From Eledone cirrhosa (lineage: Eukaryota): 64,000 bases of DNA. This document shows, in pieces, positions 1 through 64,000 of this stretch. Positions within the stretch are counted from its first letter, which is position 1. Every line of letters starts with the position of its first letter. The stretch covers positions 24,862,001 through 24,926,000 of the forward strand of contig OZ024740.1 of assembly GCA_964016885.1 (NCBI GenBank), given 5' to 3'. The notes under the pieces were generated by a model. The model did no database searches. It saw only the letters and a list, made by a program, of their open reading frames with translations, and was not told the DNA's origin. The position numbers and the translations under genes are program-made.

Positions 1-2565
1 TTAGATATTATTCTAATTTCTATGTTGTCTATGTTACCGTCATGTTGTTGTCTGGCATGTTTGTATAGCACTGACCCATTTTTTCGTCCTTTTAGTTCCT
101 CCCAGTGTTGGTCTATCCTTTCACCTATGCTACGAGCTGTCTCGCCTATGTATGTTGTTGTCATGTTTCTGCAATTACCCTCTGTACATCTTATGCTATA
201 GACTACGTTTCTAGTTTTACAGTTTATCCGGGGGTTTACCTTACATATGATACATTTCCTATTAGTACAGTGGGTTTTCTTAAAAGGGTAGGTTTTGCTG
301 ATCAGGGATTTTATGGTGGTTCCTGGCTTTTCTACCACCTTAATTTTTAAGTGGGTCTTTCTCAGGGCCTTTCTACACTGGTTAGCTAATTTCCCTCCAG
401 GGGTAGCGTCCACAAACATGACACTCTGGTATCTCTGGTTGTCATACCATGAGGTGGCTTTCCCTATCTTATGTCTAGCCCTATCTAAGCTATTCCATGA
501 TTTTCTCCTGTATAATGGGCAAATTCCTTTCATGTCCAGTTCTATGAGGGTCTTATACTTCTCCATGGCTCCTTCGTATACTCTGACTCTGTCTTTTTGG
601 TTGTAGCCAGAGAACTGCATGCGGTTGATGAAGTGTTTGATGTGTCTTTCCATTTCTGTTGGGTCGCACATGCGGGACACATTCTTCATCACTCGTATCA
701 AATCTGCGATCAGAATATTAAACTTAGCACTACTGGACATTGCTGAGTTTTTGAGTATCAGGTATTTGGAGGCCATGGGTTTAGCATAGTGTGAGTGGAG
801 AATTTGGGCTCTCTCGTCTATAGCATTAATCCAGAGTTCTGTGTCTAATACAGGTAGTCTATTGTTAGGGTGTTTGGAAGGGAAGTCGATAGTTACAGTT
901 ATACTCTGGTGTATGGAATTAGCTATCTGCTGGATGCTTTCCATTGTGCTACGTTCTAAATCAAACTTGTTAGTGCTCTCTAGTGGGGATGTTCTTATAA
1001 CTATATTGATATCGTCTACATAACGAGAGAACATGATGAGGTCTATGGAGCTCTCATTAAGGAGATCTTTAAGTCTCCTTTCCCACCATACCATGAAAAG
1101 GTTGGCAACATCACCAGTTATGATGACGCCAATGGCTGCTCCTTCATTTTGGGTGTAGATCTTCTCGTTGAATTTAAATATGTGGCCCTTGAGGGTAGTT
1201 TTGATACTAGCCTCTATTGCATGTGCGACAATTTTTCTTACCTGATCATTGTTTTGTGGGGTCCGTATAGCTTTGGTCCACCCAATCCACCTTCCCATGG
1301 GAGTCTTTTTTGCCATTGAGGTTATGGTGGGGGGGGGGGGGTCTACCTCTTATTGGTCTACTAGGGCAGAAACGTCTAAGGTCATGGCTGTCTAGGTAGT
1401 CAGTGTCGTAGGTAAGTCTAAGTAGGAGGCCCAGTTCGTCTGTGTCGACGTCGCAGAACTCCACCTCACTCTCAATGATCATCTCCACACATTTTTTCAC
1501 AGCAAAATCAATGTTAATGGATGAGTACAGTGACACTACATCCATGCTGCCTATTATGCAGTTGGATAGGTTCCTGTTTTTGTTGCACTCACTGACTCTG
1601 CTGAGGAGGTCCTCTGTACTGTCACATACATCCGGGGACATCTTGATTATGGGGCGTATAAAATATAGAGAGGAAGTAGGAGATCCTCTAGTAACTAGCT
1701 ATATTAGTTCCGCATACGGGTCTTGTTGGTGGTCCCGTTGTCGGGCCGTCGACTGTCTTGTGGTCTTTGCGGAGCCCATACAAGGGTGGTATGCCATTGT
1801 TAGACGCCTGGAAGTTGTTGACAGTGCGTCTGCTTGGCTTTAGGATATCAGTCCACATCATCATGTGAGCGTTGAGGATTTTCTCTCTCACATCGTGTGT
1901 TTGTTGTGCAATTTCGCTCGTGTTGGTGATGTGGGGTTGCATAGCCTTGATGTAGTTCGGCATGCTATCTATTGACATCCTACCAGACTTATCCGTGGGT
2001 AGACATGCTACCTCACCATCCCTTGTGCGCTGCTTGAGGCTAACCAAGCCTTCTACAGGTTTCCTCACAAGTCGTTGGGCCTCTGGTCTGCTCTGTCTCT
2101 CAGTATACCTGTCTACTATTTGTCTAATCTTATTTCTAGCTATGTGAACTGTGCCTCTGTCTCGTCATCTATTTGTTGTGGTATGCAAACTCTTTTATTA
2201 AAGGGTAACCTCGTAGGATAGATATTACCCATCTTATATGTTTTGTCAGCTGGGTTGAATAATAGTTTCTCTAAGGGTTTGTCATTATATCTATCGCCAT
2301 AGTTGTGTGTGTTGCTGTTATTGTTATCATGGTGGTTGTTGTTGTTCCTATCATTAGCATTATTATTATTGTTATGATTGCTAGATGTATTGTTGTTTAC
2401 TTCACCGTTATTGTTGTTGTTACTGTTATTTCTACCATTGTGGTTGTTACTATTATTATGTTTCTTGTTTTTGTTGTGTCTATCATTAATGTTGCTACAT
2501 GTATTATTTCTATTATTACCACTGTGGTTATTGTTGTTGTTGTTCAAAATAAAATAAACAAACAA
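1..2565 (-). pseudogene. Frameshifted PLE ORF (reverse transcriptase + GIY-YIG endonuclease)
   Basis: ORF pieces 2140-2565, 1688-2068 and 1246-1641, then RT, thumb and GIY-YIG motifs from ~1330 to the window edge. One frameshift sits at the G-run 1328-1341. Confidence 0.88.
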
Positions 2566-2643
2566 GCAAACAAATAAACAAATATATAGACAGACTGAAT
2601 AAAAATGGCGTAGCCATACAATTCAACAGGAGGAAACAATAGA

Positions 2644-2685
2644 ACCACTGACGATGTTGTAGATGTGCAACGAAAGATTTATGAT
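2644..2685 (+). ncRNA. Minimal type I hammerhead ribozyme in PLE1 pLTR (slightly decayed)
   Basis: ACCA-CTGACGA-T-GTTGTA-gatg-TGCAAC-GAAA-GATT-TA-TGAT; stem I has one mismatch. Confidence 0.7.
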
Positions 2686-2941
2686 AAACTATATATATGT
2701 GTTTGTGTCTATATTGTATCTGTATTATTTTTGACCGTCGGTCAGTCAATGGCAACATTGAGGACCGAGTATATTATATTATATTAGATTACCGATATAA
2801 AAGACACAGAAGCGAAAAGCGAAAACCAACCAAACAGTGAGTGTGTTCTGTTATTAATTCTGGCAATATTACACAAATATGACCCTCCCCAAGTATAACA
2901 ATATTTGTTTCGACACACGATTTCATATAAAAAACTCGCAA

Positions 2942-3020
<79 letters not shown>

Positions 3021-3030
3021 TATGAATATA

Positions 3031-3069
<39 letters not shown>

Positions 3070-3278
3070 CGTTTCTGAATTTGTTTAGCAAGATTCTTTA
3101 TCTGAAATCGTGTGTTGAAACCGATATTGTTATACTTTGGGAGGGTCATGTTGCCAATAAGAAACACACGCACCAGTTGCTTTCACTTCAATTTAATTTA
3201 TTAAATATTTATAAATTTACAAATTTATAAATTTCTGGTTGGTTGGTTGGTTCCACAACCAGATAGTTGTTTATATAT

Positions 3279-3323
3279 AGTCATAGTTCTTTCGTCACAC
3301 ACTCTGTGACCTCTTCAGTGACT
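3279..3323 (-). ncRNA. Minimal type I hammerhead ribozyme, PLE2 3' pLTR
   Basis: Reverse complement of 5125-5169. Confidence 0.8.
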
Positions 3324-5124
3324 GGGGATTTCTTTCTTCGTTTCTGTGCCTTTCCTTTCTTCTATCCTACGCCATTTTGTTTGTGTGTGGGTTGCGTGCT
3401 CAGTTTGCGCATGCGCCACATCCGGGTGTCTGTGTGTGTTTGTGTTCATTTTTCTATTTTTCTATTTATATTTTTCTATTTGTTTGTTTATTTATTTATT
3501 TATTGTTGGTTGGTTGTTTGTTCTATGTGTGTGTGTGTTTTCATTTTGTCGTGTGTGTGTTTTCATTTTGTGTGTGTTTTCAATTGTAAGTTGTTTGTTC
3601 TATGTGTGTGTGTGTGTTTTCATTTTGTCCTTAATTGTAAGTTGTGATGTTGCTGTTCCACTCATATTTTCTATTTAATTTTGGTTTTAATTCTTTTATG
3701 CTTACTGCCTCTGTAATTTGCCTAAACATTGCGTCTTTCTTGTGTGTGGATTCTATTTTTATTTCTATGCTCTCTAATTTACCCCTGTGTTCTATCTTAG
3801 CATGTTGGTAGAGCACATATGATTCTTTATTATCTTGGAGGTCTCGCCAGTGTTCATTTATTCGTTCCCCTATACTACGAGCTGTCTCACCTATGTACAC
3901 TACATTTTTGTTTCTACATTGTCCTTCAGTACATCTTATGCTATATACTACATTTCTAGTTTTACAGTTAATATGGGGGCTTATTTTACAGGTTATACAT
4001 TGCTTATCTATACATGAGGGTCTTTGGAACGGGTATGTCTTGCTAATAAGTGTTTATACGGAGGTACCAGGTCTTTCTACTATCTTAATATTGAGATTAT
4101 GTTTCTTTAGGGCCCTTCTAAATTTGTAGGCTAGTTCGCCTCTAGGGGTTGTATTGATGAACATTACACTCTGGTATTTATTGCTATCATACCATGAGTT
4201 TATTCTATTGGCCTTGTTCTTAGTTCTTTCTATTCTATTCCAAAATTTGCTCCTATACAAGGGGCAGGTCCCATTTATGTCATTATTTACCATTTTTTCC
4301 CATTTGGTTCTGGCTCCTTTATACACTCTGATTCTATCTCTCTGATTGTAGCGAGAGAACTGCATACGGTGGATGAAGTGTTGTATGTGTCTCTTTAGTT
4401 CTTCGGGGTTGCACATGCGGGACACATTTCTCATCACCCGTACCAAATCCGCAATCAGTATGTTGATTTTGGTATGGTCCGAAATGGCCGAGTTTCGGTG
4501 GATCAGATGTTTGGAAGTCATGGGTTTGGCATAATGGGAATGGAGGATTTGTTTTTGGTTGTTAATAGTATCTAACCAGAGCTCTGTGTCTAGTACAGGT
4601 AATCGATGGTTGGGGTGTCTACTTGGGTAGTCTATAGTAACTCTAATGCTCTGGTGGATGGAGTTTGCTATTTGCTGGATGCTTTCCAAAAATAGAATCC
4701 ACACACAAGAAAGACGCAATGTTTAGGCAAATTACAGAGGTAGTAAGCATAAAAGAATTAAAACCAAAATTAAATAGAAAATATGAGTGGAACAGCAACA
4801 TCACAACTTACAATTAAGGACAAAATGAAAACACACACACACACATAGAACAAACAACTTACAATTGAAAACACACACAAAATGAAAACACACACACGAC
4901 AAAATGAAAACACACACACACATAGAACAAACAACCAACCAACAATAAATAAATAAATAAACAAACAAATAGAAAAATATAAATAGAAAAATAGAAAAAT
5001 GAACACAAACACACACAGACACCCGGATGTGGCGCATGCGCAAACTGAGCACGCAACCCACACACAAACAAAATGGCGTAGGATAGAAGAAAGGAAAGGC
5101 ACAGAAACGAAGAAAGAAATCCCC

Positions 5125-5169
5125 AGTCACTGAAGAGGTCACAGAGTGTGTGACGAAAGAACTATGACT
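5125..5169 (+). ncRNA. Minimal type I hammerhead ribozyme, PLE2 inverted pLTR
   Basis: AGTCA-CTGAAGA-G-GTCACA-gagtg-TGTGAC-GAAA-GAAC-TA-TGACT, with perfect stems I and II. Confidence 0.82.
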
Positions 5170-5316
5170 ATATATAAACAACTATCTGGTTGTGGAACCA
5201 ACCAACCAACCAGAAATTTATAAATTTGTAAATTTATAAATATTTAATAAATTAAATTGAAGTGAAAGCAACTGGTGCGTGTGTTTCTTATTGGCAACAT
5301 GACCCTCCCAAAGTAT

Positions 5317-9238: not shown

Positions 9239-12040
9239 GAATGAAGAATAACATGGGCCGCTAATCGCTCGAAGTTGCATCACTAGATCTTCATTACATT
9301 ATTTACCTCTGACTCAAGATATATTTATAGAGAAATAGCGTATAATCAAACCGATTAAATCAATAATAAAATATATGATACATAGATAAAGAAGTTACAG
9401 ATGTAAAAAGTAAAAGATAAGAAAAAAGATACAGTAAAAAGTAAGAAAATGGAAAAATAAGAAAAATATAAAGAAATAAGGATAAGTGAGAGCATATAAG
9501 AACAGAATATGATAGTGGTGGTGGTGACTAAGTTTCCGTATAAGGATGCTGTGGTGGATTTAGTGCTAACATGAAAAGTCATATTCGAAACATATATAGA
9601 TACGTGTAGAGAGTCTGAGCTAGTGGTAGATGAAAAAAAAGCTTTTGAATTAGAGATTAATTGGGAGATACTAGTATAGGACCAAAGGGCTAAGGGTGGA
9701 TGGTGAAGGGAGGTTTGACAAATGTGTGTGGTAAATGTTTTGCTGATTGTCTTGTCTTAATGGGGTTGATTCCGTTTCAGGGAGAGAGGGTGAAATAGAT
9801 GTTAAGAGATTTATGATCTAGTGACCAGTCGGCTGTTTGACAGCCAATAGTGGTGTGATGGTATATATTCCATATGTTAAAATCCAGATGCTTCAGTTCT
9901 AATTTTGCGATTACTTGCTCGAATCACGGTGGTTTGAAATTTGTGAACTTGGTAGCTATTTTATGCCTACAGAAAATTGATGTTTCTATTTTGCTGTTAA
10001 GCATCTTATCGTACCTTAACATATGGAATAGCTCCATATTGCAAAGTCTGCAATGGGACATTCCATTGTCGTAGGCCCTTTGACCAGCTAATCCTATATT
10101 CCTGGTTTGTGTTTTTAATCTGCCCGATTTTATTGGCGAGCGTCGTAGAGACCTCCAGTCTATGGATCTTCATGGAGTGTCTATGAACGTACCACCTTCT
10201 TTTGAACTCCCCAGCCGTGGAACCTAGGTAGTGCCAAGTAAAGTTGCCTGAATTTACAGTACACAGGTACACCATACTCGAATCCAGGCATCTATTTTGT
10301 AGTGGACACTTATGCGGTAGGTGGCAGTTACATTTGGAGGCTTTTCTGTGTGCAGGTTCTCCGTTGCGGTTTTGTATATTGTTGTGGGTGGGTTGCGATT
10401 TAGGTCTATTAGCGTTTTGTTGTGATGCGCCCTGATGTATGTGTGGTTGCGATGTTGTGTTTGCGTTTTGTACAATGGTGTATGTTGGTAGGTTACTTTC
10501 TTTAGAGATATTTTTGTGTTTGATTTTATGTCTGTGTGATTCTATGTTGGCTGCAGTAGAGTAAGATAGTTGATAGTTCTTCTATTAAATATTCTATGCT
10601 ATTTGTGTAGTTTAGGGAAGTGTTTGTCTATTAGCTTAAAGAATGTAGCAGGTAGTTTGGTTTTTATAGATGATTTGAATATTGGATTTCCTATCTCTGG
10701 ATCTTCTATAGTTCTTTGGGATCCTTATATTAGTGTTCGGTTCAGTTATTTTTGGTGCTCGTTGTCTAATTCTATGTTTAGTCATATGTTTGTTATTTCT
10801 ATAGGTGTGGGTAGTGTAGTTGTCGTTAGGTTTGTTGCTGCTGTCTCTATATGTTATGTATTTTAGCCCCTCCTTATGTCCTGCCTTATGTAAAGATATG
10901 TTATAATAGTCTGCGTGTTCATTGAAAATCTCTAGGTTAGAAGACAGGCTGGATATTCTGAGGGCTATACTATGTGCTATGGAGTTAATTATGGATCGGG
11001 GTGGTTTGAGATATAACTAATGTAGGCTAGATTCTCGTTATTTTTGTGGAAGGGCTCTATTAATCCTGTGTTTAGGTTGAGTGTTACATCTAAGAAGTTT
11101 GCTTTTTTAGAGTTAAGTTCGAAAGTGATACCTAAGCCTAGTTTGTTGAAGAAAACTGATGTTTTTCCGTAATTTTTCCATGTTTTGATTATTTAAGTTT
11201 TTGGCTAAAAGGAGTGTGTCGTCTCTATAAATTCCTCCCTGGAGGATATTGAATTCCTTATGTAAGTTGTGCGCTATATATATTCCCACTAAGTCCGTTA
11301 CCTGTGCTGAGTCGTTAGATCCCATTGTGATATCGAAGCTATTCTGTTTGTTTTTTCGTTCCCAGTAACTAGTTTCAAATCTAATGATAGTTTTCCTAGC
11401 CGCTAGTATTATTTTAATTTCGTCCGAGGTAAGGTCCGAAGTTTTCTGGACAAAAGTTAGCGCTTTATCTAGGGTGACTGGGGATGTGGATGAGTAGTAG
11501 TCATTACTGTCCAACTGTACGAAGTTGTATATTTCTCTACTGTCTATTTTGCTGAACCAGTCTATTGCTTCGTTAGTGTTACCCCATAGCTTAATTAGTA
11601 GTTTGTCCTTGATTTGTGCGATTACTCTATCTAGTATATATACTTGCTAATTCTACCTATAACCAACTTCGATGGGCATATTTATCTAATTGCGGGGTCT
11701 GTTTCGAAATTGTTTTTGTGATCCTTTAGGCTAAATGTGGGTTACAAGGGGTTAGAGGCCCGGTTCTATCAGATATTTTCAGTTTTTTTACTCTGCTAAA
11801 TCCTTCCTTATTAATGCTAGTGAGTGCAGATTCTGTGGTTTTCTTGTATTTTGTTGTGCAGTTCACGGCGTATAAAGTTGTTGTAGGTATTAAGGCTCAT
11901 GGTGTATACATTTGATGTTTTGTCCGCTTCTACTATAATACCGTTGGTGCTACGTAGTTTTTTTAGTAGTGCATTGATGTCGTTTTGCAGTTTGTTGTGA
12001 TGTGTCCGTTTTTTTAATGTGGTTCCTCTTATCATGTTCA
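9237..12040 (-). mobile_element. Penelope-like retroelement 3 (YRDD-type RT, possibly Nematis clade), decayed
   Basis: ADKTSNVY (11817-12041); FDITMGSNDSAQVTDLVGIY and GGIYRDDTL (11113-11514); GIY-YIG VYLCTV..YLGSTAGEFKRRWYVH (10006-10275) with CPL..CL and a C-terminal CRH. Multiple frameshifts; bounded by (TA)n. Confidence 0.9.
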
Positions 12041-13607: not shown

Positions 13608-15394
13608 ACCAGTTCCTGTACACAGCTAAGTATTCTATAAGTCTCTAGCTGTGTCATTCTCGATAAAAGCACTGGATATGTAGTCCTGATGATTTCTAAC
13701 GAGAATGAAACGCGTAGATTACTTCCCTTGCTTTTATCGAGAATCTAATTGTAATACGTGACGTATTCTATTCTATAGCGATTAGGTCTTCAAAATGTTT
13801 ATTATAAACATACAGAATATTTTCGAATATTCTATGTCTATATTCACATATATATCGCTATTTCAGAGCATTTATTCCAATTTCTAATTTCTGCCGGACC
13901 GGCAACCGCTCTTTCAAACCAGTTCCTGTACACAGCTAAGTATTCTATAAGTCTCTAGCTGTGTCATTCTCGATAAAAGCACTGGATATGTAGTCCTGAT
14001 GATTTCTAACGAGAATGAAACGCGTAGATTACTTCCCTTGCTTTTATCGAGAATCTAATTGTAATACGTGACGTATTCTATTCTATAGCGATTAGGTCTT
14101 CAAAATGTTTATTATAAACATACAGAATATTTTCGAATATTCTATGTCTATATTCACATATATATCGCTATTTCAGAGCATTTATTCCAATTTCTAATTT
14201 CTGCCGGACCGGCAACCGCTCTTTCAAACCAGTTCCTGTACACAGCTAAGTATTCTATAAGTCTCTAGCTGTGTCATTCTCGATAAAAGCACTGGATATG
14301 TAGTCCTGATGATTTCTAACGAGAATGAAACGCGTAGATTACTTCCCTTGCTTTTATCGAGAATCTAATTGTAATACGTGACGTATTCTATTCTATAGCG
14401 ATTAGGTCTTCAAAATGTTTATTATAAACATACAGAATATTTTCGAATATTCTATGTCTATATTCACATATATATCGCTATTTCAGAGCATTTATTCCAA
14501 TTTCTAATTTCTGCCGGACCGGCAACCGCTCTTTCAAACCAGTTCCTGTACACAGCTAAGTATTCTATAAGTCTCTAGCTGTGTCATTCTCGATAAAAGC
14601 ACTGGATATGTAGTCCTGATGATTTCTAACGAGAATGAAACGCGTAGATTACTTCCCTTGCTTTTATCGAGAATCTAATTGTAATACGTGACGTATTCTA
14701 TTCTATAGCGATTAGGTCTTCAAAATGTTTATTATAAACATACAGAATATTTTCGAATATTCTATGTCTATATTCACATATATATCGCTATTTCAGAGCA
14801 TTTATTCCAATTTCTAATTTCTGCCGGACCGGCAACCGCTCTTTCAAACCAGTTCCTGTACACAGCTAAGTATTCTATAAGTCTCTAGCTGTGTCATTCT
14901 CGATAAAAGCACTGGATATGTAGTCCTGATGATTTCTAACGAGAATGAAACGCGTAGATTACTTCCCTTGCTTTTATCGAGAATCTAATTGTAATACGTG
15001 ACGTATTCTATTCTATAGCGATTAGGTCTTCAAAATGTTTATTATAAACATACAGAATATTTTCGAATATTCTATGTCTATATTCACATATATATCGCTA
15101 TTTCAGAGCATTTATTCCAATTTCTAATTTCTGCCGGACCGGCAACCGCTCTTTCAAACCAGTTCCTGTACACAGCTAAGTATTCTATAAGTCTCTAGCT
15201 GTGTCATTCTCGATAAAAGCACTGGATATGTAGTCCTGATGATTTCTAACGAGAATGAAACGCGTAGATTACTTCCCTTGCTTTTATCGAGAATCTAATT
15301 GTAATACGTGACGTATTCTATTCTATAGCGATTAGGTCTTCAAAATGTTTATTATAAACATACAGAATATTTTCGAATATTCTATGTCTATATT

Positions 15395-15404
<10 letters not shown>
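13608..15404 (+). repeat. Tandem array of 310-bp hammerhead-containing units (5.8 copies), retrozyme-like
   Basis: AGTTCCTGTA recurs at 13611, 13921, 14231, 14541, 14851 and 15161. Units look identical by eye, and each has one HHR. Confidence 0.95.
13656..13744 (+). ncRNA. Extended type I hammerhead ribozyme, unit 1 (repeated every 310 bp, 6 copies)
   Basis: GTAGTC-CTGATGA-T-TTCT-aacg-AGAA-T-GAAA-CGCG-TA-GATTAC. A perfect 16-bp distal stem pairs ATTCTCGATAAAAGCA with TGCTTTTATCGAGAAT. Predicted cleavage is after A13716. Confidence 0.88.
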
Positions 15405-15431
<27 letters not shown>

Positions 15432-15880
15432 GTGTGTATGTGAGAGAGAGAGCGATAGAGTGAGAAAGAGAGAGTGAGTGAGAGAGAGAGAGAGGGAGAG
15501 AGAGAGAGAGAGAGAGAGAGTGTCTGTGTGTGTGAGAGTGTGTGTGTGCGTGTGTGTGTATTTTGGAAAGTGATATATGTAATAAGGCCAAACAGTACAA
15601 AATGGACGGTAAGGTGAAGAAAACGAAGAAATTAGTTTCCTGGTAATCTTTGTTATAGTTTACTGTTTCTTTCGTCTTAATATTTTGGGACTTAGAACCC
15701 CCTTCTTCGGAGTATAAGGAAGTCTCACATAATTTTTTTTAATAAAGTGAGATTTGGGCTTATATTTAATTTAAGACGAATTCAATTTGTCTAGTTCGAT
15801 AAATTTACATTTAATTCTTCCTAAGTAACGGATTTGCCTATGATCGAAAGTTGAATATTATATAGTTTCTTATATACATT

Positions 15881-16222
15881 GCTATTTCAGAGCACCAATC
15901 CTAATACCTAATGTTTGCTGTACCGGCAATCACATGTATAATCCGCTCCTGATTATTACTGGAATTCTATAAGAATCCATCTTTTATAATTTTCGGCGGA
16001 AGCAAGGGGTTCTTCGCTCTGATGAACGCCAACCAGCGTGAAACAGACTGTCAGCTTCTCTCCCTTCTTTCCCCGAAAATAAGTAAGTAACATAGTCACT
16101 ACTTTAAAACTGATAGCCTATGGTCTTCTAAATGTGTTTAGTTAAACATACAGTATATTGCCAAATATACTATACATACATTCATGTATACATCGCTATT
16201 TCAGAGCACCAATCCTAATACC
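15881..16222 (+). mobile_element. Diverged ~314-nt retrozyme-like monomer with terminal direct repeat
   Basis: GCTATTTCAGAGCACCAATCCTAATACC occurs at 15881 and 16195. Sequence and hairpins are collinear with the 310-bp unit. Confidence 0.82.
15989..16080 (+). ncRNA. Extended type I hammerhead ribozyme
   Basis: GCT-CTGATGA-ACGC-caacca-GCGT-GAAA-CAGACTG-TC-AGC, plus distal stem ATTTTCGG..AAGGGG / CCCTT..CCGAAAAT. Confidence 0.82.
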
Positions 16223-16875
16223 ATACTTTCTTACATTAATTCGATTGTTATGTATTATGCACTTCTGATTGTTTTTTTATATACTGGGATGAGTTCTACT
16301 GGCGCCATCTTCAAATTGTTTGAAATTCAACCCTCAAATGAGATGTAACACTTTACACTAGGTCTGATACACTAGATCCTTTGGAAGTCACGTTACACGG
16401 TGGCTATTATTGACTGCTACCTTGTCAGCTTTAGACCTATTCTATAGGACATTAAGGGGTAAACTCCGATGAAAATTTGCCCCACTTGTCCTAGGTGCAT
16501 ATATTTTTTCTTGATGATTTTGAGAATAACGCGTTGCTACGCGCATGGAGTGCAGCATATGCACACCCCAAGTATGTGGTGCAGTAATGAAACCATGGTC
16601 GTGGTTCCAGAGCAAGATTTATTTCTTTTCCACACAGATCGTTTATACAACAAATTAACGCATTGTGTGCGCTTTGATATATACATGTATTTCACAAATA
16701 CGGATCCACGGACCGAGTGAAAATTCGGCGAGCTAGTTCGATAAATCCCCCCCCCCCCCTCTCTCTCTCTCTCTCTAAGAGATGTAAACATGAATGGACC
16801 TCTTATTTTTATCTAAAGACATTTTTTCCAATTCAAACCCGCCCGTCCCCTCAATCTATCTTATTCCTCATTCTT

Positions 16876-16911
16876 TCTTCTGATGAAGGACTAGCGTCCG
16901 AAACGTTAAGA
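16876..16911 (+). ncRNA. Minimal hammerhead ribozyme in a short pLTR-like element (~16780-17000)
   Basis: TCTT-CTGATGA-A-GGAC-tagc-GTCC-GAAA-CG-TT-AAGA, with palindromic AACGTT at stem III. Confidence 0.8.
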
Positions 16912-17193
16912 CCCTCTTCCTGCTATATCAAGCTTTAACCTAATATATCCCTTCCATATACTGTACCGATTGTGTTGTTATTCTGTTTAACTTTTACATA
17001 TATATATATATATAGGGAAGCAGAAACTTGCTTATTGTAATCCAGGTCGTGATTAAGAAAGCCACTTTCTTGGACGGTTTCAACGTACGGCTATGGGTAA
17101 CTTCACAAGTTTGTAAGAATCACGTTCAATCTTGGAGTATAAAGGATAAAAGAGAAAACACAGGTAAGCATTACAAAAAGTATTTTATCCAGG

Positions 17194-19132: not shown

Positions 19133-19636
19133 TATTATTAGAAATGTAAGCTATCGCCGTATTTTGACTAAAGAAATTAAAGAAATTATTTAGTCTGATA
19201 GTGGGGTTAAGAACCCTCGGAGAAATGGAAAAAAAGATGAGTATTGAGGTACATGGGAGTCGAACCCTCATCTTTGGTTATCCGAACCACTGTGATACCA
19301 TTTACACCAACACATCACCCGTTCCTTTCCATTCAAATTAGAAGCTATAAACTTAGCGACTGTAATGTCAAGTAAGAATATTTTCGAATATTTTCTAATT
19401 TGAATGGAAAGAGACGGGTGATGTGTTGGTGTAAATTGTAGCACAGTGGTCCGGATAACCAAAGATGTGGGTTCGACTCCCACGTACGTCAATACTCATC
19501 TTTTTCCATTTCTCCGAGGGTTCTTAACCCCACTATCAGGCTAAATAATTTCTTTAATTTATTTAGTCAAAATACGGCGATAGCTTACATTTCTAATAAT
19601 TTCAAACCCACTCGCTGTTTCGAAAATATTCTTACA
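19133..19636. mobile_element. Inverted pair of tRNA-like-headed elements (arms ~19133-19343 and ~19391-19600)
   Basis: Both arms carry A box TGGTGTAAATGG and B box GGGTTCGA. The ~210-bp inverted repeat is TA-flanked. A partial copy lies at 49732-49872. Confidence 0.75.
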
Positions 19637-19716: not shown

Positions 19717-21030
19717 CTAGCAGCAGTACCCAGCGTTGCTTGGGTAGGTAAAATAATATCTATTTTGATGAAAAGTTGTTGATCTTAGCGACTGCTTCTC
19801 GATGACTCATCTATGGCCACACACAGGCCATGCGGGGGAGGGTGGTGATGACCTCTATCACTGAGAAACGCGGTTGACTGACGAAGGGGTATGCTGGGGG
19901 AGAGAGGAAACGACCACTAACACTAAGCCAAATTTCCTCACGCTACTTGATTGGAAACCGATGAATTCTCAAATACACATCTAAAAGCTCAGACGACGTC
20001 AGTGGCCATCGTTTTGTCTTTGACCATCTATAAGATGTGCAATGATATTGTAGTATAAAAGTTGAACCAAATAAATTGATTTATGTGTGAGGTGGAGCCG
20101 GAGTTCCGAATTTGAACGAAATCGGTTGAAAAATGTGGGAGCTAATGATAGGTCGCCGTCCCTGAACAAAAAATGCAAAGTGTAGAGCTACTATAAAATG
20201 TGCAATGATAGGTTCTATCGTAGTATACAAGTTGAACCAAATAAATTGATTTATGTGTGAGGTGGAGCCGAAGTTTCGAATTTGAACGAAATCGGTTGAA
20301 AAATGTGGGAGCTAATGATAGGTTCTATCGTAGTATAAAAGTTGAACGAAATAAATTGATTTATGTGTGAGGTGGAGCCGAAGTGTCGAATTTGAACGAA
20401 ATCGGTTGAAATATGTGGGAGCTAGAGCCGAAAAGGCGGAAATTTGAACGAAAAGGTGGTATTTTCCAATATTTAAGCGGCTGCCACTCCGTTCGCGAAC
20501 AAAATATCCAAAATGTGAAGGCACTGTAAGACGTAAAATAATCAGATCTAGCGTAGTGTAAAATTTGATCAAAGTAGGTTGATTAATGTGGGAGGTAGAG
20601 CCGAAAAAGTGGAAATTTGAGTCTAAAAGTGGTATTCTTGAATACCACTGTAAAAGTGGTATTTTTGAATATTTAAACGGCTGCCACGCCGTACCTGAAT
20701 GACAAATGCAAAATATAAAGCCATTACAGGATGTGCAATGATAAGTTCTATTTTGCTTTAAAATATTAACGAAATCGGTGGAAAAATGTAGGAGCTAGAG
20801 CCAAAAATCTTATTTTTCGATACCTAAAAAAAGGTGAGTCCCCTATCGATTTTTATCTGCAGAATGACCCCGGAATAAAAAAAAAACATACGCTGATATA
20901 TAGAAAACATCTCCCCGATGACTAATCTATGAGCCTGTAAAGTTTCCTGAAAATCGGTCGTAAGATGTAGGCCCCTATAGGTAATAAACAGACACAGACA
21001 CACACATACTTAATTTTATATATATACAGA
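19717..21030 (-). mobile_element. Non-autonomous Helitron
   Basis: The minus strand starts TC(TGTATATATATAAAA) after A and ends in hairpin ACCCAAGC-AAC-GCTGGGT plus CTAG before T. Internal ~120-bp tandem repeats lie at 20030-20810. Confidence 0.8.
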
Positions 21031-22809: not shown

Positions 22810-22990
22810 GTTTGTGTCTATATTATAACTGCATTTTTGACCGTTGGTCAGACATGGTAAACATTGAGGACCGAATAAATAACTGATATAAAAGATACAG
22901 AAGCGAAAACCAACCAAACAGTGAGTGTGTTCTGTTATTAATTATGGCAATATTATTACAACAATATGGCCCTCCCCAAATATAACAATA
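22810..22990 (+). mobile_element. Fragment of PLE1-type pLTR
   Basis: Aligns to 2700-2905 (TTTTTGACCGT..CAACCAAACAGTGAGTGTGTTCTG..CCCTCCCCAA). Confidence 0.8.
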
Positions 22991-23077
22991 TATATACTCA
23001 GTATATATATACTCAGTATATATATATACTCAGTATATATATACTCAGCCGTTAATATGCATAAGTTAAGTATATAC

Positions 23078-23161
23078 GTTCAACAATCTGGCAGGAAGGT
23101 ATATGTTGCTGACGATAGCTAATAAGCTTGAAACTAGTACGTTCCTTCGTCAGTGTTGAAC
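23078..23161 (+). ncRNA. Extended type I hammerhead ribozyme within a third retrozyme-like monomer (~23046-23370)
   Basis: TG-CTGACGA-T-AGCT-aata-AGCT-T-GAAA-CTAG-TA-CG, with distal stem GTTCAACA..CTGGC.GGAAGG / CCTTC-GTCAG-TGTTGAAC. Confidence 0.8.
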
Positions 23162-23404
23162 AAACGAGCAACGATGGTTGCTAGACACTACGGCTTAATA
23201 CGGGATGTTTGTTTTCAAACACACCGAGCATTATAATAAATGTTCGGTGAATCCATACGTACATATATATATGTGTGCATGTATGTATATATATATACAT
23301 ACTACTGTACGTCTGTATACATATATGTATGTACGTGTACGTACTTATATTTAAGTAACAGCCGTACTAAGAATGGGAAATGAAATTTCGTTTCATTTTT
23401 TTCC

Positions 23405-23500
<96 letters not shown>

Positions 23501-27103: not shown

Positions 27104-28944
27104 TTGTATTGGAATGATATGAAAATATTTTATACACTAGATAAAAGAGAAAGAAGGAGGTAGGAAGAGAAGGGGAAGAGGGAAGTGAGTAAGGTGGAGG
27201 GAGTCCTAGGATTTAAGACTGTCAGACTAGTAGAGATTGTAAGGAGAGAATGTTTTGGCAGCAGTTAGCTTAATGAGGTGTGTTAGGGTTGGCGGGGGAA
27301 GTAAATTCTTCTAGTGGTGTTGTTTGGACAAAATTTAGTTAAAGGGGTCAAAGTGGTACAGAGTTACAGAAAAGTTATTGGGGCTATTATAGTAGCAGGT
27401 TATTTCTAAAGGGGTTCAGAAAACAGTGTTTAGTACTATTATTATAGAAAGTCATATCTTGTGTATAAACATATAAAACAGAAATTTGCAAACGGTGGTG
27501 TAAAAAGGTAACATTACATGCATTTAAAAAAAGAAAAAGTCGTTTTCAAACGATGGTTACAGTACAGTGAACGTTCAATTTTGCTGTTCAAAAGTTTGTT
27601 TACCGACGTTAAAATGTAGTATATCTCCATATTGCATAATTTACAGAATCGATGATTTTGCCCATATGCAGGCGCGCACAATAATTTACCAATCAAGGAA
27701 GAATGCTTGATTGTTCCTCCGGAGCTGCCAGACTTTATCGGCGAGGGTTGTTACGGAGCGCATTTTCTCGTGCCTGATCGAAGATCGATGTTGGTATAGG
27801 CGAGCTTTGAAAGAAGTTGCGGTACATCCGACGTAATACCATTTGTTGGTTCCGGAATTTATTGTACATCGGTAGACAATATTGCGTGCTAGGCACTGGT
27901 TATTCAGTGGGAACGTACCTGGTTTGGTGCAGTTACAATTATTTTTATGTTTTGCAGTAGTATCCTGGATAGTTTGGTGGGGTTGTAGTTGCGTGTTAGT
28001 GCGTTGTATGTTGCTATGCTGGTGCGCTGAGTCATTAGGGATGTACTTATTTAGTATTGCTGAGTTGAGTTTTTTAATTAGTTGTTCTATGTTAGGTGCA
28101 GTGGAATATGAGAGTCTAATGGTGCGCGAGTTAAAGATTTTATAGTATTTATGTGAAGTTGTAAAGTGTTTATTGATTAGTGTATAGAATTGTGAGATAA
28201 TCTTAGTGCTAATAGAAATATTGTACACGAGGTTATACCATATGTACTCTCTACGTCTGACTCTATTTGCTGGTTTGCACCTATTAGTATGCCTATTGAT
28301 GTGTGTGTGTGGTGCAATACTAGTTCGACTTAGATGTGTTTTATTCATAGTACTTATGTGGTTATCGTCTAGATATTCTATTTTCTCAAGTAACCAGCTG
28401 TTCTAAGTGCGTCATTTTAATATTCAGCATGCTCGTTGAAGGTCTGCAAATTCGACGACAGTCGGGAGATCCTTATAGATATATTTTTAGGGATAGATTT
28501 AATAATGGAATGGGGATGGTTCGATTTTACATTAACGTACTTGAGATTCATTAAGTTTGTGAAATGGCTCTATATTACCGTTATTAAGGTTGAAGGTGAC
28601 ATCCAAGAAGTTGACCACCTTAAGATTTCTGGACCCCTTTAGAAATAACCTGCTACTATAATAGCCCCAATAACTTTTCTGTAACTCTGTACCACTTTGA
28701 CCCCTTTAACTAAATTTTGTCCAAACAACACCACTAGAAGAATTTACTTCCCCCGCCAACCCTAACACACCTCATTAAGCTAACTGCTGCCAAAACATTC
28801 TCTCCTTACAATCTCTACTAGTCTGACAGTCTTAAATCCTAGGACTCCCTCCCCCTTACTCACTTCCCTCTTCCCCTTCTCTTCCTACCTCCTTCTTTCT
28901 CTTTTATCTAGTGTATAAAATATTTTCATTTCATTCCAATACAA

Positions 28945-33465: not shown

Positions 33466-34179
33466 ATAGTAGATATAGCTTGGCAACATGGTTCAGAGGT
33501 TTACATAATGAGATACTACGTTCACTCACAACAGTATAGCAACTTGTATTTGGTTTACTTCTAGCCATGTGAATGAAACTGGTTCCATGGAAGTTGTTTG
33601 GAAAGTCCTCAGATAGACTATACATGTAGATCAAACGGCTAGCAGTGTTACACTGAATCTCTCTGAAAATAATATAATGGCATATATGTCTGTGAAATAA
33701 TCAATCATTTACAAGTTAGCTTAACGCATAAGCCGTTCCCTCGATCGAATAATCGGAAAAATTGACGGAGACACCTCTACAAAGACATACCTGGTAGTTA
33801 TCTTTTACAAAGACACTTGGTAGTTATATTTTCCAATTTTGATGGATGAAAATAAAAAGTAGATTTCAACAAAGTTTCAACACAGAAACTAAAACGCTTT
33901 AATTAATTATCGGAACAGTAATTTCCCTCACTTTACCGGTTCTGCAGTTTGGTCATGTGTTCAGATTTCACTAGTCAGCCGTTCATCATATCAGTGGCTT
34001 ATAACACTTATCCAACGCTTATGAGGTAATGCAAACTGCGAGAAAGATCAGGCGAATCTTTCCTTTTCTTTTTCATTACACACAAATATTACACTGTAAT
34101 AGGATCCTTACTGTAGTGAGTCTGAGTTAAAGGCAGAAAGGTCACGACTGGATTGTATTTGATCGTATGTACGGAGAAG

Positions 34180-36105
34180 AAGAGCTGGGTGGAAAAACAT
34201 AGAGAAGTGATTCCCACCAGATTCACAGTGCCATTTATATTAGTCGCAGTCACACTTATTCTGGAAAACAACACATTCTTCTTCAATGGAAAAAATTACA
34301 TTCAAATTAGAGGCACAGCGATGGGAACGAAGTTTGCTCCCGTTTACGCGAACTCTGTAATGGGATACTTAGAACAACAAATCTACCAAGAAATAGAGGA
34401 AAAATATAGCACTGAATTTAGAAAGTACATTGAAAAGTCATGGAAGAGATACCTTGACGACTGTTTCATCATCTGGACAGAATCTCTAGATACTCTGGAT
34501 GAGTTCAATATCCTCCTGAATAACCTACACACATCTGTCCAATTTACAAAAGAGATGAGTAGTACCAAATTACCATTCCTAGATATAATGGTAATCAAAA
34601 ACGACATCACCATTACCACGGATATATAATATAAACACACAGACACCCATCAACATCTGAATTTTAAGTCATGCCATCCACCTCATACAAAACGCAACAT
34701 CCCATACTGCCTAGCCAGAAGAATGTGTACCATTGTAGAAGATACGAATACCAGGAACAAACGACTAACAGAACTGAGAGAATTTTTGCTCAAACAAAAA
34801 TACCCATCTCTACTTATAGAAAATGGCATACAGCGGGCTATAAAAATACCTATGCAGCAACTTAGGACAACCCAAGGAAGAAGAAATCAAGAACTGGTCA
34901 TACCATTTATAATGACACACAAACCCTGTCACCAGAATATCTTCAACACTGCCAAAGCAAACCTACCGATCATTGGTCAACGTAATGAATTAAAAGGCTT
35001 AATCACAGACCGATCTTTGACTCTTAGTAAAAGACAGCCGAAAAATTTGAAGCAATTACTAACGAAGGCAAAGTTTGACCTTAACAACAAAGACCAATTA
35101 TTCACTGTATCTAAATGCAATGATAGTCGATGTGGCACATGTCAATCCATACACACCGGTCAATATATGAACACAAAAACTCGAAAAATATTCCCAAATG
35201 CAAATATGAACTGCAAAAGCAGAAATCTAATTTACTGCATTAAATGCCCGAATTGTGAAGAGCTATATGTCGGTCAAACTGGAAATGCACTATCAGAACG
35301 TGCACGAGTGCATCGACAGCAAATCAGAGACCCCAAATGTCCGTCAGATACCAAATGTCCGTGAGATACCCAAATGTACTGAGTAACCATCTAGCAATAT
35401 GTGGTCAGAAAATATTTATAATATTTCCATTCTACAAACTACACAGCCCAAGTGAAATGAAGAGAAACATTAAAGAAAAGAATGTTCTTGATAAATTCCA
35501 ACCCAAGTTAAATGAACAATAATAATGCTTAGGGGTATTACTCCTACTATGACTACGCCTAAGACCATGTCGGCTACCACCAGTAACAACAACAACAATA
35601 ATAATAATAAAAGTGATGTTGCTGTTGATGATTACTGAAGATTTTTATAAAAAAACATAGAAAACGGTATTTTGATCATTTCTAAAAATAGCAAAACAAA
35701 AGATGCTTTGGATAGGGTCAAATAGAAGTCGTTAGACATGCTCAACCAACCGTGACGCCTAAACCAATCAGCTTTAGTAATCTAGTGAAACCACACACCG
35801 ATTGGTCGAGATAAAGTTTGCAAAACTTAACATTCTGTAGCCCCTTTTTACTGTATATAAGGCACAGATTTTAGCCATCTCACTACAGTTGAACATTGCA
35901 AACTTGACTGTCACCACTGAATATGAACCTGATGATTGCGAAAGCATGAAAGTACTTGTTCAATTAACATTTAACATTTAATATTCTACCATACTATTTC
36001 ATTATAACATCATTAAAATTTTAAAGATTGTAAATAAAACGAGTAAATCAGACAAAGTTGGAATTCCTTTTATTAATATAATCTTCTATACACAATGATA
36101 TACAC
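34180..36105 (+). mobile_element. Penelope-like retroelement 5, 5'-truncated, probably Neptune-type (Cys-rich linker)
   Basis: YIQIRGTAMGTKFAPVYAN, WKRYLDDCFIIW, LPFLDI, KCNDSRCGTC, and GIY-YIG NLIYCIKCPNCEELYVGQTGNALSER. A stop at 34629 and a ~20-bp duplication at ~35330-35375 disrupt the frame. Confidence 0.92.
35924..35962 (+). ncRNA. Minimal type I hammerhead ribozyme in PLE5 pLTR
   Basis: TGAAC-CTGATGA-T-TGC-gaaa-GCA-T-GAAA-GTAC-TT-GTTCA, with a perfect stem I and palindromic stem III. Confidence 0.85.
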
Positions 36106-39957: not shown

Positions 39958-42900
39958 GGTATGGTATGGTATGGGATGGTATGGGATGGTACTGTATGGT
40001 ATGTTATGGTATGGTATGGTATGGTATGTTATGGTATGGTATGGCATGGTATGGTATGGATGGTATGGTATGATATGGGATGGTACTGTATGGTATGGTA
40101 TGGAATGGTATGGTATGGTTATAGTACGGTATGGGATGGTACGGTATGGCAGGGTATGGTATGGTATGATATGGTGTGGTATGGTACGGTATGGTATGGT
40201 AGCTATGGTATATTAGGTATGGTATGACATGATTATGGTATGGTAAGGTATGGTATGGTATGGTATGGCACGGTATGGTAAGGTATGGTATGGTATGATA
40301 TGGTACGGTATGGTATGGTATGGTACGGTATGGTATGGTATGATATGGTATGGTACGGTATGGTATGGTATGGTATGTTATGGTATGGTATGGTATGGTA
40401 CGGTATGGTATGGTATGGTATGGTACGGTACGGTATGGTATGGTATGATATGGTACGGTACGGTACGGTATGGTATGGTATGGTATGTTATGGTATGGTA
40501 CGGTATGGTATGTTATGTTATGGTACGGTATGGTATGGTATGGTATGTTATGGTATGGTATGGTATGTTATGGTATGGTATGGTATGTTATGTTATGGTA
40601 TGGTATGGTATGGTATGTTATGGTATGGTATGGTATGGTACGGTATGGTATGTTATGTTATGGTACGGTATGGTATGTTATGTTATGTTATGGTACGGTA
40701 TGTTATGGTATGGTATGGTATGGTATGGTATGTTATGGTATGGTATGGTATGTTATGGTATGGTATGGTATGGTATGTTATGGTATGGTATGGTATGGTA
40801 TGTTATGGTATGGTATGGTATCGTACGGTATGGTATGTTATGTTATGGTACGGTATGGTATGTTATGTTATGTTATGGTACGGTATGTTATGGTATGGTA
40901 TGGTATGGTATGGTATGTTATGGTATGGTATGGTATGGTATGGTATGTTATGGTATGGTATGGTATGTTATGGTATGGTACGGTATGTTATGTTATGTTA
41001 TGTTATGGTACGGTATGTTATGGTATGGTATGGTATGGTATGGTATGGCATGGTATGGTATGGTATGGTATGGTATGGTATGGTATTGTACGGTATGGTA
41101 TTTTATGTTATGTTATGGTATGTTATGGTATGGTATGGTATGTTATGGTATGGTATGGTATGGTATGGTATGTTATGGTATGGTATGGTATGGTATGGTA
41201 TGGTATGGTATGGTACGGTACGGTATGGTATGGTACGGTATGGTTTGGTATGTTATGTTATGGTACGGTACGGTACGGTATGGTGTGGTATGGTATGGTA
41301 TGGTATGGTACGGTATGGTATGGTAAGGTCTGGTACGGTATGGTATGGTATGGTGCGGTATGGTATGGTAGATATGGTATATTAGGTATGGTATGACATG
41401 ATTATGGTATGGTAAGGTATGGTATGGTATGGTATGGTATGGTACGGTATGGTATGGTATGGTATGGTATGGTATGGTATGGTATGGTATGGTATGGTAT
41501 GGTATGGTATGGTATGGTATGGTATGGTATGGTATGGTATGGTATGATATGGTACGGTACGGTATGGTATGGTATGGTATGGTATGGTATGGTATGGTAT
41601 GTTATGGTATTGTATGGTATGCTATGTTATGGTATGGTATGGTATGGTATGGTATGGTATGGTATGTTATGGTATGGTATGCTATGTTATGGTATGGTAT
41701 GCTATGTTATGGTATGGTATGGTATGGTATGGTATGTTATGGTATGTTACGGTACGGTATGGTATGGTATGGTATGGTATGGTATGGTATGGTATGGTAT
41801 GGTATGGTATGCTATGTTATGGTATGGTATGGTATGGTATTGTATGGTATGGTATGGTATGGTATGGTATGTTATGGTATGGTACGGTACGGTATGGTAT
41901 GGTATGGTATGTTATGGTATGGTATGGTATGTTATGGTATGGTATGGTATGGTATGTTATGGTATGGTATGGTATGGTATGTTATGGTATGGTATGGTAT
42001 GGTACGGTATGGTATGGTATGTTATGGTACGGTATGGTATGTTATGTTATGTTATGGTACGGTATGTTATGGTATGGTATGGTATGGTATGGTATGTTAT
42101 GGTATGGTATGGTATGGTATGGTATGGTATGGTATGGTATGTTATGGTATGGTATGGTATGGTATGGTATGGTACGGTATGTTATGTTATGTTATGTTAT
42201 GGTACGGTATGTTATGGTATGGTATGGTATGGTATGGTATGGCATGGTATGATATGGTATGGTATGGTATGGTATGGTACGGTATGGTATTTTATGTTAT
42301 GTTATGGTATGTTATGGTATGGTATGGTATGTTATGGTATGGTATGGTATGGTATGTTATGGTATGGTATGGTATGGTATGGTATGGTATGATATGGTAC
42401 GGTACGGTATGGTATGGTACGGTATGGTTTGGTATGTTATGTTATGGTACGGTACGGTACGGTATGGTGTGGTATGGTATGGTATGGTACGGTATGGTAT
42501 GGTAAGGTCTGGTACGGTATGGTATGGTATGGTGCGGTATGGTATGGTAGATATGGTATATTAGGTATGGTATGACATGATTATGGTATGGTAAGGTATG
42601 GTATGGTATGGTATGGTATGGTACGGTATGGTATGGTATGGTATGTTATGGTATGGTATGGTATTGTATGGTATGGTATGGTATGGTATGGTATGGTATG
42701 GTATGATATGGTACGGTACGGTATGGTATGGTATGGTATGGTATGGTATGTTATGGTATGGTATGGTATGCTATGTTATGGTATGGTATGGTATGGTATG
42801 GTATGGTATGTTATGGTATGGTATGCTATGTTATGGTATGGTATGCTATGTTATGGTATGGTATGGTATGGTATGGTATGTTATGGTATGTTACGGTACG

Positions 42901-43485
42901 GTATGGTATGGTATGGTATGGTATGGTATGGTATGGTATGGTATGGTATGGTATGGTATGCTATGTTATGGTATGGTATGGTATGGTATTGTATGGTATG
43001 GTATGGTATGGTATGGTATGTTATGGTATGGTACGGTACGGTATGGTATGGTATGGTATGGTATGGTATGGTATGGTATGGTATGTTATGGTATGGTATG
43101 CTATGTTATGGTATGGTATGGTATTGTATGGTATTGTATGGTATGGTATGGTATGTTATGGTATGGTACGGTACGGTATGGTATGGTATGGTACGGTACG
43201 GTATGGTATGGTATGGTATGGTATGGTATGGTATGTTATGGTATGGTATGCTATGTTATGGTATGGTATGGTATTGTATGGTATTGTATGGTATGGTATG
43301 GTATGTTATGTTATGGTATGGTACGGTACGGTACGGTATGGTATGGTATGGTATGCTATGGTATGTTATGGTATGGTATGCTATGTTATGGTATGGTATG
43401 GTATTGTATGGTATGGTATGGTATGGTATGTTATGGTATGGTACGGTACGGTATGGTATGGTAAGGTATGGCATGATATGGTATG
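39958..43485. repeat. (TATGG)n pentanucleotide satellite with ~1.17-kb higher-order duplication
   Basis: Unit variants TATGT, TACGG and TATTG. Marker TATATTAGGTATGGTATGACATGA occurs at ~40209, ~41378 and ~42557. Confidence 0.97.
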
Positions 43486-43814
43486 GACACATATCACCTG
43501 GTGGGAGCGGTAGGGGCGCCGTTGTGAAATACAGCATTCTTGGGGATTTTAAGCCTGGCGGGCCCATATCTCTTCAGGTTTGAACACAACAGATTTCTTC
43601 CCGAGAAAGAATGTGTGTGTCTGTGTGTGATTATATGTGTGTGTGAGTATATGTGTGTGGGGGGAGAGGGAGAGAGAGAGCGGAAGAATCGACCCCATTA
43701 CAAGATAGGTATTTTTTTATCGTACAAAAAAAAAGGATCGTCGACCTTCGTTAAACCGGACCGAGGAAACAATGTCTCCGTTCGTCTTTCCAGTTGCTAA
43801 GACTATCTATCTGT

Positions 43815-62800: not shown

Positions 62801-64000
62801 ACAGGAAGTTCTAGTGACATTGTGACATGATCAGATATTGGAGTTACAGGAAGTTGTTGTGACATTGTGACACGTTCAGATATTGGAGTTACAGGAAGTT
62901 CTAGTGACATTGTGACATGGTCAGATATTGGAGTTACAGGAAGTTGTAGTGACATTGTGACATGGTCAGCTATTGGAGTTACAGGAAGTTCTAGTGACAA
63001 TGTGACATGGTCAGCTATTGGAGTTACAGGAAGGTCTAGTGACATTGTGACATGGTCAGATATTGGAGTTACATGAAGTTGTAGTGACATCGTGACATGG
63101 TCAGATATTGGAGTTACAGGAAGTTTTATTGACGATGTGACATGGTCAGCTATTGGAGTTACAGGAAGTTCTAGTGACAATGTGACATGGTCAGCTATTG
63201 GAGTTACAGGAAGTTGTAGAGACATTGTGTGACATGGTCAGCTATTGGAGTTACAGGAAGTTGTAGTGACATTGTCACATGGTCAGCTATTGGAGTTACA
63301 GGAAGTTCTAGTGACAATGTGACATGGTCAGCTATTGGAGTTACAGGAAGTTCTGGTGACAATGTGACATGGTCAGATATTGGAGTTACAGGAAGTTCTA
63401 GTGACATTGTGACATGGTCAGCTATTGGATTTACAGGAAGTTGTAGTGACATTGTGACATGGTCAGCTATTGGAGTTACAGGAAGTTCTATTGACATTGT
63501 GACATGGTCAGATATTGGAGTTACAGGAAGTTCTAGTGAAAATGTGACATGGTCAGCTATTGGAGTTACAGTAAATTGTAGTGACATAGTGACATGGTCA
63601 GCTATTGGAGTTACAGGAAGTTCTAGTGACAATGTGACATGTTCAGATATTGGAGTTACAGGAAGATCTATTGACATTGTGACATGTCAGATATTGGAGC
63701 TACAGGAAGTTCTAGTGACAATGTGACATGGTCAGCTATTGGAGTTACGGGAAGGTCTAGTGACATTGTGACATGGTCAGATATTGGAGTTACATGAAGT
63801 TGTAGTGACATCGTGACATGGTCAGATATTGGAGTTACAGGAAGTTTTAGTGACGATGTGACATGGTCAGCTATTGGAGTTACAGGAAGTTCTAGTGACA
63901 ATGTGACATGGTCAGCTATTGGAGTTACAGGAAGTTGTAGAGACATTGTGTCACATGGTCAGCTATTGGAGTTACAGGAAGTTGTAGTGACATTGTCACA
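56815..64000. repeat. 45-bp minisatellite array (>7.1 kb, ~160 units, continues past the window)
   Basis: Consensus GACATTGTGACATGGTCAG(C/A)TATTGGAGTTACAGGAAGTTCTAGT, with periodic 47-bp variant units and block duplications. Confidence 0.97.

Follow-up and report, generated by a model that had tools for sequence, protein, structure and literature searches.

The window analysed here is a stretch of 64,000 nucleotides from Eledone cirrhosa, and it holds, at 15873-16222 on the plus strand, an insertion consisting of one 314-nt unit and a 36-nt overlap, a decayed retrozyme copy. The initial annotation had described a monomer of about 314 nt bounded by a 28-nt direct repeat. The exact repeat is indeed present at 15881-15908 and 16195-16222, with a period of 314, and it extends to 36 nt with one mismatch (15873-15908/16187-16222), but it does not bound the element. 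It is no LTR and no target duplication; it arises because an insertion of 1.1 units overlaps itself, and upstream of it other family copies reach variable distances. What had been taken for a boundary is a more informative feature, part of a tail of the kind found in Penelope-like elements (PLEs), copied twice. We place the insertion at 15873-16222, with a likely 11-bp target-site duplication, because an 11-nt near-repeat adjoins the element on both sides (15862-15872 and 16223-16233, matching at 10 of 11 nt with one mismatch) and is rare in the window, where only these 2 of 63,989 11-mers lie within one mismatch of the right-hand copy. A family-wide survey of target duplications gave 33 of 118, compared with 181 of 585 in the control, without gain over the control.

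An independent young insertion of another subfamily lies upstream on the same strand, an array of 5.8 identical 310-nt units at 13608-15405; its end is about 470 bp from the monomer, close to the 480 bp first given. The array unit and the monomer are identical at 207 of 321 alignment columns, and both belong to a family of animal non-LTR retrozymes with at least six subfamilies, the array to subfamily A and the monomer to subfamily B. Units of the family are 310-321 nt long, occur both as arrays and as monomers, and are non-coding, without a coding link. In the host genome (3.0 Gb, rich in (AT)n microsatellites) a 29-mer of the array has 15,099 exact matches and a 25-mer of the monomer has 1,411, the reversed-pattern controls giving 0 in both cases; at least 2,524 candidate relatives of the monomer were found, the best of them 90-92% identical and dispersed. 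Our alignment comprises 93 real units of 300-330 nt, namely the window monomer and a single unit from each locus; before the D set was included, 106 distinct units had been extracted. The groups are A (21), B (32), C0 (4), C1 (4), C2 (15) and D (15), with the diverged rows L208 and L224 excluded from them. Majority states are 64-92% identical between groups, while mean divergence within groups is 0.9% in A, 3.8% in B and 5.5-7.5% in C and D.

Subfamily A, the youngest, sits on a long branch (64-71% identical to the others) with no intermediates in the sample, and its stem II no longer has the basal G-C; the branch may reflect either hidden persistence or horizontal arrival. The same subfamily appears at low depth in three of four sequencing contig sets, under other organism codes, where trace host DNA, transfer and expression are not separable; a 310-nt loop is seen in contigs, and a tandem DNA array would assemble into the same loop. 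One very diverged family member (L185), which stops at a (CT)n tract, is part of a tandem segmental repeat of 1.4 kb. The window itself also carries a (GGTAT)n array of about 706 units (39958-43486), a 45-bp satellite of at least 159 units (56826-64000), and two similar tRNA-like sequences in divergent orientation, at 19245-19316 on the minus strand and 19420-19491 on the plus strand (Rfam 31 and 41 bits), which are possibly SINE heads.

The window monomer is an old, decaying subfamily B copy. It differs from the B majority state at 20 positions (18 substitutions and 2 deletions), with the second highest substitution count among the 32 B copies, and four of the differences break pairs (16015, 16072, 16089 and 16118), those at 16015 and 16072 weakening helix I. 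Against 40 shuffles its folding z is -2.4, while a single typical B copy reaches -5.4 and A reaches -5.5. We rejected an origin of the monomer by local duplication out of the array, as its nearest relatives (about 92%) are dispersed elsewhere. A shared target preference best explains why the monomer lies so close to the A array; locus L197 also has two subfamilies side by side.

The unit carries one type I hammerhead domain with an extended helix I (15991-16078 on the plus strand, distal arms 15991-16005 and 16065-16078). The catalytic core spans 16019-16052, with CUGAUGA at 16019-16025, stem II at 16026-16029/16036-16039, GAAA at 16040-16043 and, as first annotated, GUC at 16050-16052, the predicted cut falling after C16052; stem III of the monomer is 3 bp long, with a near-palindromic loop. 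The assignment is motif-based, the core and three stems being present and covarying in six subfamilies; Rfam gave no hammerhead match at gathering level, and Hammerhead_HH9 scores 21.9 bits on the monomer (E 0.058), below the gathering score of 52. The core pair C3-G8 is kept as C-G in 21 of 21 A copies and 28 of 32 B copies, and is replaced by U3-A8 in 14 of 15 C2 and 14 of 15 D copies, a swap also reported for a PLE hammerhead (PMC4209133). Palindrome correction cannot yield this swap, which argues that an active ribozyme has been kept in the source lineages. Three other plus-strand hammerhead motifs occur in the window, at 16770-17010, 19860-19950 and 22985-23420 (cores 16880, 19878 and 23109); the elements with cores 16880 and 23109 end at (AT)n, and 23091-23272 gives a weak match to the family profile (E 3e-4). 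These three are probably other PLE ends or retrozyme families.

The covariation was assessed in two ways. An all-pairs G-test with APC compared 48,516 pairs with 30 tree-based null alignments. None fell under E 0.05, and the best pair, 16001-16068 (E 0.65), is in helix I; with about six lineages this test was underpowered. We also examined 12 helices that had each been predicted in a single subfamily, taking as a baseline random pairs canonical in that subfamily, of which about 3.5% of the variable ones keep pairing everywhere with a double change. In distal helix I, 10 of 14 pairs vary; pairing is kept in 9 of these, in 8 of them through double changes (binomial p about 1e-10). The double changes occur on various branches, and the helix has retained bulges and G-U pairs. 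This is the strongest covariation in the unit, and it bears out, far above chance, the earlier remark that the distal stem of the hammerhead is replaced in sequence yet still pairs. The helix p-values assume independent pairs, and as the subfamilies are related they are safe for distal helix I only. The 8-bp hairpin at 16152-16171, the counterpart of the array hairpin at 13814-13833, has 3 of 8 pairs varying, all 3 of which stay paired, 2 by double change (p 0.004, or about 0.04 after 12 tests). The change between array and monomer that had been called compensatory is a true double change, A-U to U-A, and a second and independent one (A-U to G-C) is found in C1/C2.

The remaining structure fares less well. 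The TGCTG-TAC-CGGCA hairpin at 15916-15928 had also been offered as a compensatory case (TGCCG/CGGCA to TGCTG/CGGCA), but the change is one-sided, C-G to U-G with an invariant 3' arm; the sequence is conserved, none of the 5 pairs of TGCYG/CGGCA shows a double change, and 8 of the 32 copies aligned have lost the innermost pair. Eight other helices likewise have no double change, making 9 of the 12. The GTGAC-type hairpin (16086-16100) is borderline, with 2 double changes in 8 pairs (p 0.03, uncorrected); it is broken in the window copy at 16089 and takes another register in A. Hairpins in 15938-15989 do not maintain their register between subfamilies, and a long-range helix of GACC/GGTC and CGCT/AGCG was rejected, with a pairing probability of at most 0.07 and no double change. 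In a 32-row subset there are 156 double-change cells compared with 11-34 in slid registers, for a structure drawn partly from the same alignment. The data support selection on structure outside the catalytic core at two elements only, extended helix I and the hairpin at 16152-16171; the broader suggestion that the whole monomer is so selected does not extend to the nine helices without a double change.

The most invariant block of the unit is the tail, which is conserved as primary sequence. Within and around it we noted two further features. ATAGCG at 16113-16118 and CGCTAT at 16194-16199 are invariant in all six majority states, with the former broken at 16118 in the window copy; pairing between them could enclose the hairpin and the second 3' end, but being invariant it could show no covariation. 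GTAAGT at 16083-16088, directly after helix I, resembles a splice donor and is kept in B, C and D but not in A, and the invariant TTTCAG at 16199-16204 in the tail resembles a splice acceptor. The 5' regions of PLEs can contain an intron. If the putative intron here were real, the second end and the hairpin would lie inside it.

Insertions of the family have two fixed 3' ends about 35 nt apart, with the tail (16185-16222) between them: end 2 lies near 16184, 13 nt downstream of the hairpin, and end 1 at 16219-16222. The window copy uses end 1, whereas the A array uses end 2, inside an (AT)n tract at 15398-15425. We classified 298 arms from 185 loci: 154 stop at site 1, which lies 18-36 nt beyond the tail anchor, 104 at site 2, 0-22 nt short of it, and 40 elsewhere, and 204 of the 258 fixed-site arms lie beside (AT)4. 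Ninety-seven arm pairs are head-to-head: 68 have one arm at each site, 2 are site 1/site 1, 2 are site 2/site 2 and 25 include an unclassified arm, so that 68 of 72 fully classified pairs have one of each end. Sampling by a tail-containing pattern misses some site 2/site 2 pairs, though not site 1/site 1 pairs, and this bias is small in multi-unit A arrays, where 16 of 16 two-armed arrays (18 examined) have one of each end. The 5' ends, by comparison, are scattered, with 5 of 298 falling within 3 nt of the ribozyme cut; no excess at the cut would be expected if the template were a circle or a multimer. Truncation at the 5' side, an inverted 5' arm, partial tandems and an AT-rich target are all PLE-type traits, and the fixed ends with one site per arm are a Penelope tail signature.

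The identity of units within insertions speaks to the template. In subfamily A, 386 of 424 unit pairs within an insertion and 173 of 185 pairs across its arms are identical, compared with 7 of 136 pairs between insertions; one array (locus L125) is an exception, being a mosaic of unit types. Identity within insertions and difference between them fits rolling-circle reverse transcription. A linear multimeric transcript of a homogeneous array would be able to yield similar insertions, which counts against a circle, but because 13 unit types occur across 17 A insertions, each of them nearly homogeneous, we favour a circular template over a linear multimer.

The genome encodes candidate enzymes. 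Protein searches found two intact PLE-type families in it, one of them very young, with a 775-aa ORF (RT and C-terminal GIY-YIG) in 4.2-kb tandems, the other with an 808-aa ORF. The C-x4-C-x2-C motif of the 775-aa element tentatively fits the Neptune/Nematis groups of PMC8557442. In its hammerhead, as in that of subfamily A, stem II has a basal U-U and stem III is palindromic. The element ends 123 and 177 nt after the hammerhead cut, where A and B end 130-132 and 165-167 nt after it; its tail is about 54 nt long versus about 35 nt in the retrozyme. It has (AT)n flanks, and each of its 3 two-armed copies combines a short end with a long one. A second long frame of 496 codons, stop to stop, is present in the 4.2-kb unit (L247:847-3171 and L247:3654-5141), upstream of the RT frame and starting just past the tail. 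The window itself holds broken RT/GIY-YIG remnants of at least three PLE types, at 1246-5180 (with an inverted terminal repeat), 10006-11646, 27686-28402 and 34126-35364, two of which have intact young relatives elsewhere in the genome, the 775-aa and 808-aa families. No DNA similarity to the retrozyme unit was detectable in the 775-aa and 808-aa families or in the window remnants (three of many PLE types), which, like the difference in tail length, counts against the PLE model. Across 185 loci no consistent RT/GIY-YIG coding sequence is found in the neighbourhood of the unit. By its signature the mobiliser is likely PLE-type.

Taken together, the window element is very probably a decayed single-unit copy of a non-coding hammerhead tandem-repeat retroelement, likely inserted in trans by a PLE RT/GIY-YIG protein. 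A tandem source copy would be transcribed, and the hammerhead would excise monomers, probably as a dimer because stem III is short and palindromic, after which a host ligase would circularise them; transcription, self-cleavage and ligation to circles have their basis in PMC7229834. The PLE protein, probably itself a dimer, would then bind the hairpin-plus-tail region and nick both strands of an AT-rich target, and cDNA would be primed at two tail sites, one per strand, reverse transcription then following the circle for as long as it lasts. The window copy with its 28-nt repeat would correspond to about 1.1 rounds and the neighbouring array to about 5.8. The invariant tail and the covarying hairpin, which lies 13 nt before site 2 and is likely part of the reverse transcriptase signal, would together form the binding signal, and selection would act on source lineages rather than on dead copies such as the window one. 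PMC11167929 offers biochemical precedents. Reverse transcription in vitro starts at two internal sites, and the PLE tail is what lies between them; each strand of the target is nicked and then extended; and the protein is a predicted dimer. Hammerhead cleavage is, however, dispensable for insertion in vitro, which counts against the model. That one dimeric Penelope-type enzyme grips a single RNA circle at hairpin and tail and fires both reverse transcriptions in one event, priming both arms from one template, is a more tentative proposal, to which we would give slightly less than an even chance.

Other readings of the locus deserve consideration. The initial annotation pointed to a replicating structured RNA, which holds in the retrotransposon sense of RNA copied to DNA; the stronger version, that the whole monomer is one conserved, selected fold replicating from RNA to RNA in the manner of a viroid, we regard as unlikely. 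Intact copies do beat shuffles on the plus strand (z -4.7 to -8.3), two helices covary, and pairing of the invariant GCTAT with ATAGC, whose probability is 0.27-0.76 depending on the subfamily, may delimit a domain that contains the hairpin. Such a fold is nevertheless hard to square with the three-quarters of tested helices lacking a double change, with several hairpins limited to the register of one subfamily and with the lack of any covarying long-range helix; moreover, no CTGANGA...GAAAC core occurs on the minus strand of the 64-kb window, although viroid-like RNAs often have ribozymes in both polarities, and reverse transcription accounts for the insertion anatomy. We saw no sign that RNA is copied into RNA. 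A purely mutational origin of the compensatory changes seems hardly credible; on this view, reverse transcription or DNA replication would switch templates at inverted repeats and so correct imperfect palindromes without selection. Fold-back junctions are common in the insertions, some of them near the hairpin and distal stem, and template switching may explain both double changes of the short hairpin, but C3-G8 is a tertiary pair and not an inverted repeat, and it is swapped in 28 of 30 copies of two subfamilies, while the double changes of helix I fall on different branches as its bulges and G-U pairs persist.

The remaining alternative, which we consider very unlikely, concerns the origin of the arrays: the units might be orphaned pLTRs of 5'-truncated autonomous PLEs, amplified in place by unequal crossover, an in-place satellite route discussed in the Xenopus preprint (bioRxiv 10.64898/2026.07.22.740005). 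The ends and the hammerhead type are the same as in PLE pLTRs, several PLE remnants lie in the window, and an ancient pLTR origin is still plausible. For recent copies the reading is largely refuted. PLE-coding matches occur at only 15 of 185 retrozyme loci, at distances of 54-1208 nt and in mixed families and orientations; tandem copies return to the unit rather than enter an ORF; and both inverted arms can be multi-unit, with locus-specific variants in common and defined ends, unlike the products of in-place crossover.

If one dimeric enzyme does prime both arms from a single circle, the 310-nt retrozyme would represent a minimal template, provided by nature, for rolling-circle integration at two ends. 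Its insertions would then prove directly, from their anatomy, that animal retrozymes are mobilised by PLEs, and would explain why the tail is found at one end only. Thousands of young, ORF-free insertions make PLE start sites countable, display a strict one-site-per-arm rule and record unit identity insertion by insertion. The six subfamilies amount to a natural mutagenesis series, which points to selection on helix I, on the C3-G8 pair and on one hairpin. A 310-nt RNA makes it possible to test which enzyme moves animal retrozymes and how PLEs build inverted, tailed insertions.

Among known systems, the closest are the metazoan non-LTR retrozymes (Cervera and de la Pena 2020, PMC7229834), which are likewise non-coding tandem units of 170-400 nt with one type I hammerhead per unit and low GC, and for which PLEs have been proposed as mobilisers. 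Subfamily A resembles the axolotl HHR_Amex2 in that work in having U-U at the base of helix II and a 2-bp helix III. Those retrozymes have no LTR, PBS or PPT and have longer target duplications (>4 bp), while here the terminal repeat is unit overlap and the likely duplication at the window copy is 11 bp. Circular RNA and cleavage have been shown for them and are predicted for the Eledone family; two fixed ends, a tail and head-to-head arms are features of the Eledone family that the available text of PMC7229834 does not describe for retrozymes.

Endonuclease-containing PLEs (Craig 2021, PMC8557442; Arkhipova 2013, PMC3846280; Frangieh 2024, PMC11167929) supply that anatomy: they have a tail of 30-40 bp at one end only, already known for autonomous PLEs, inverted 5'-truncated arms, partial tandems, AT-rich or (TA)n targets, target duplications of 8-10 bp and a hammerhead upstream of the RT starts. 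Unlike them, the retrozyme has no ORF, is 310-320 nt long, often carries many full units per arm and has a long extended helix I in place of their minimal one. Chlamys MRC1 (PMC8557442) is similarly non-coding and PLE-dependent, with multicopy head-to-tail insertions, but it belongs to a clade without canonical hammerheads and its 3' end resembles that of its autonomous partner.

PLE dependence has also been concluded for Xenopus retrozymes, which occur as monomers, dimers and multimers and of which most tested copies cleave poorly (bioRxiv 10.64898/2026.07.22.740005). Tails and covariation go unmentioned in the main text of that preprint, and none of the papers listed in literature searches refers, in its title or the opening of its abstract, to retrozyme tails or a one-site-per-arm rule; the supplements of PMC7229834 and of the preprint may include the family. 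The Eledone family is new to the known class of retrozymes, and retrozymes and their likely PLE dependence are already in print. The Xenopus conclusion rests on co-occurrence and pLTR homology, with growth of arrays in place discussed; in the Eledone family the conclusion draws on the anatomy of insertions, searches having turned up no pLTR homologue, and the arrays appear to have been inserted ready-made.
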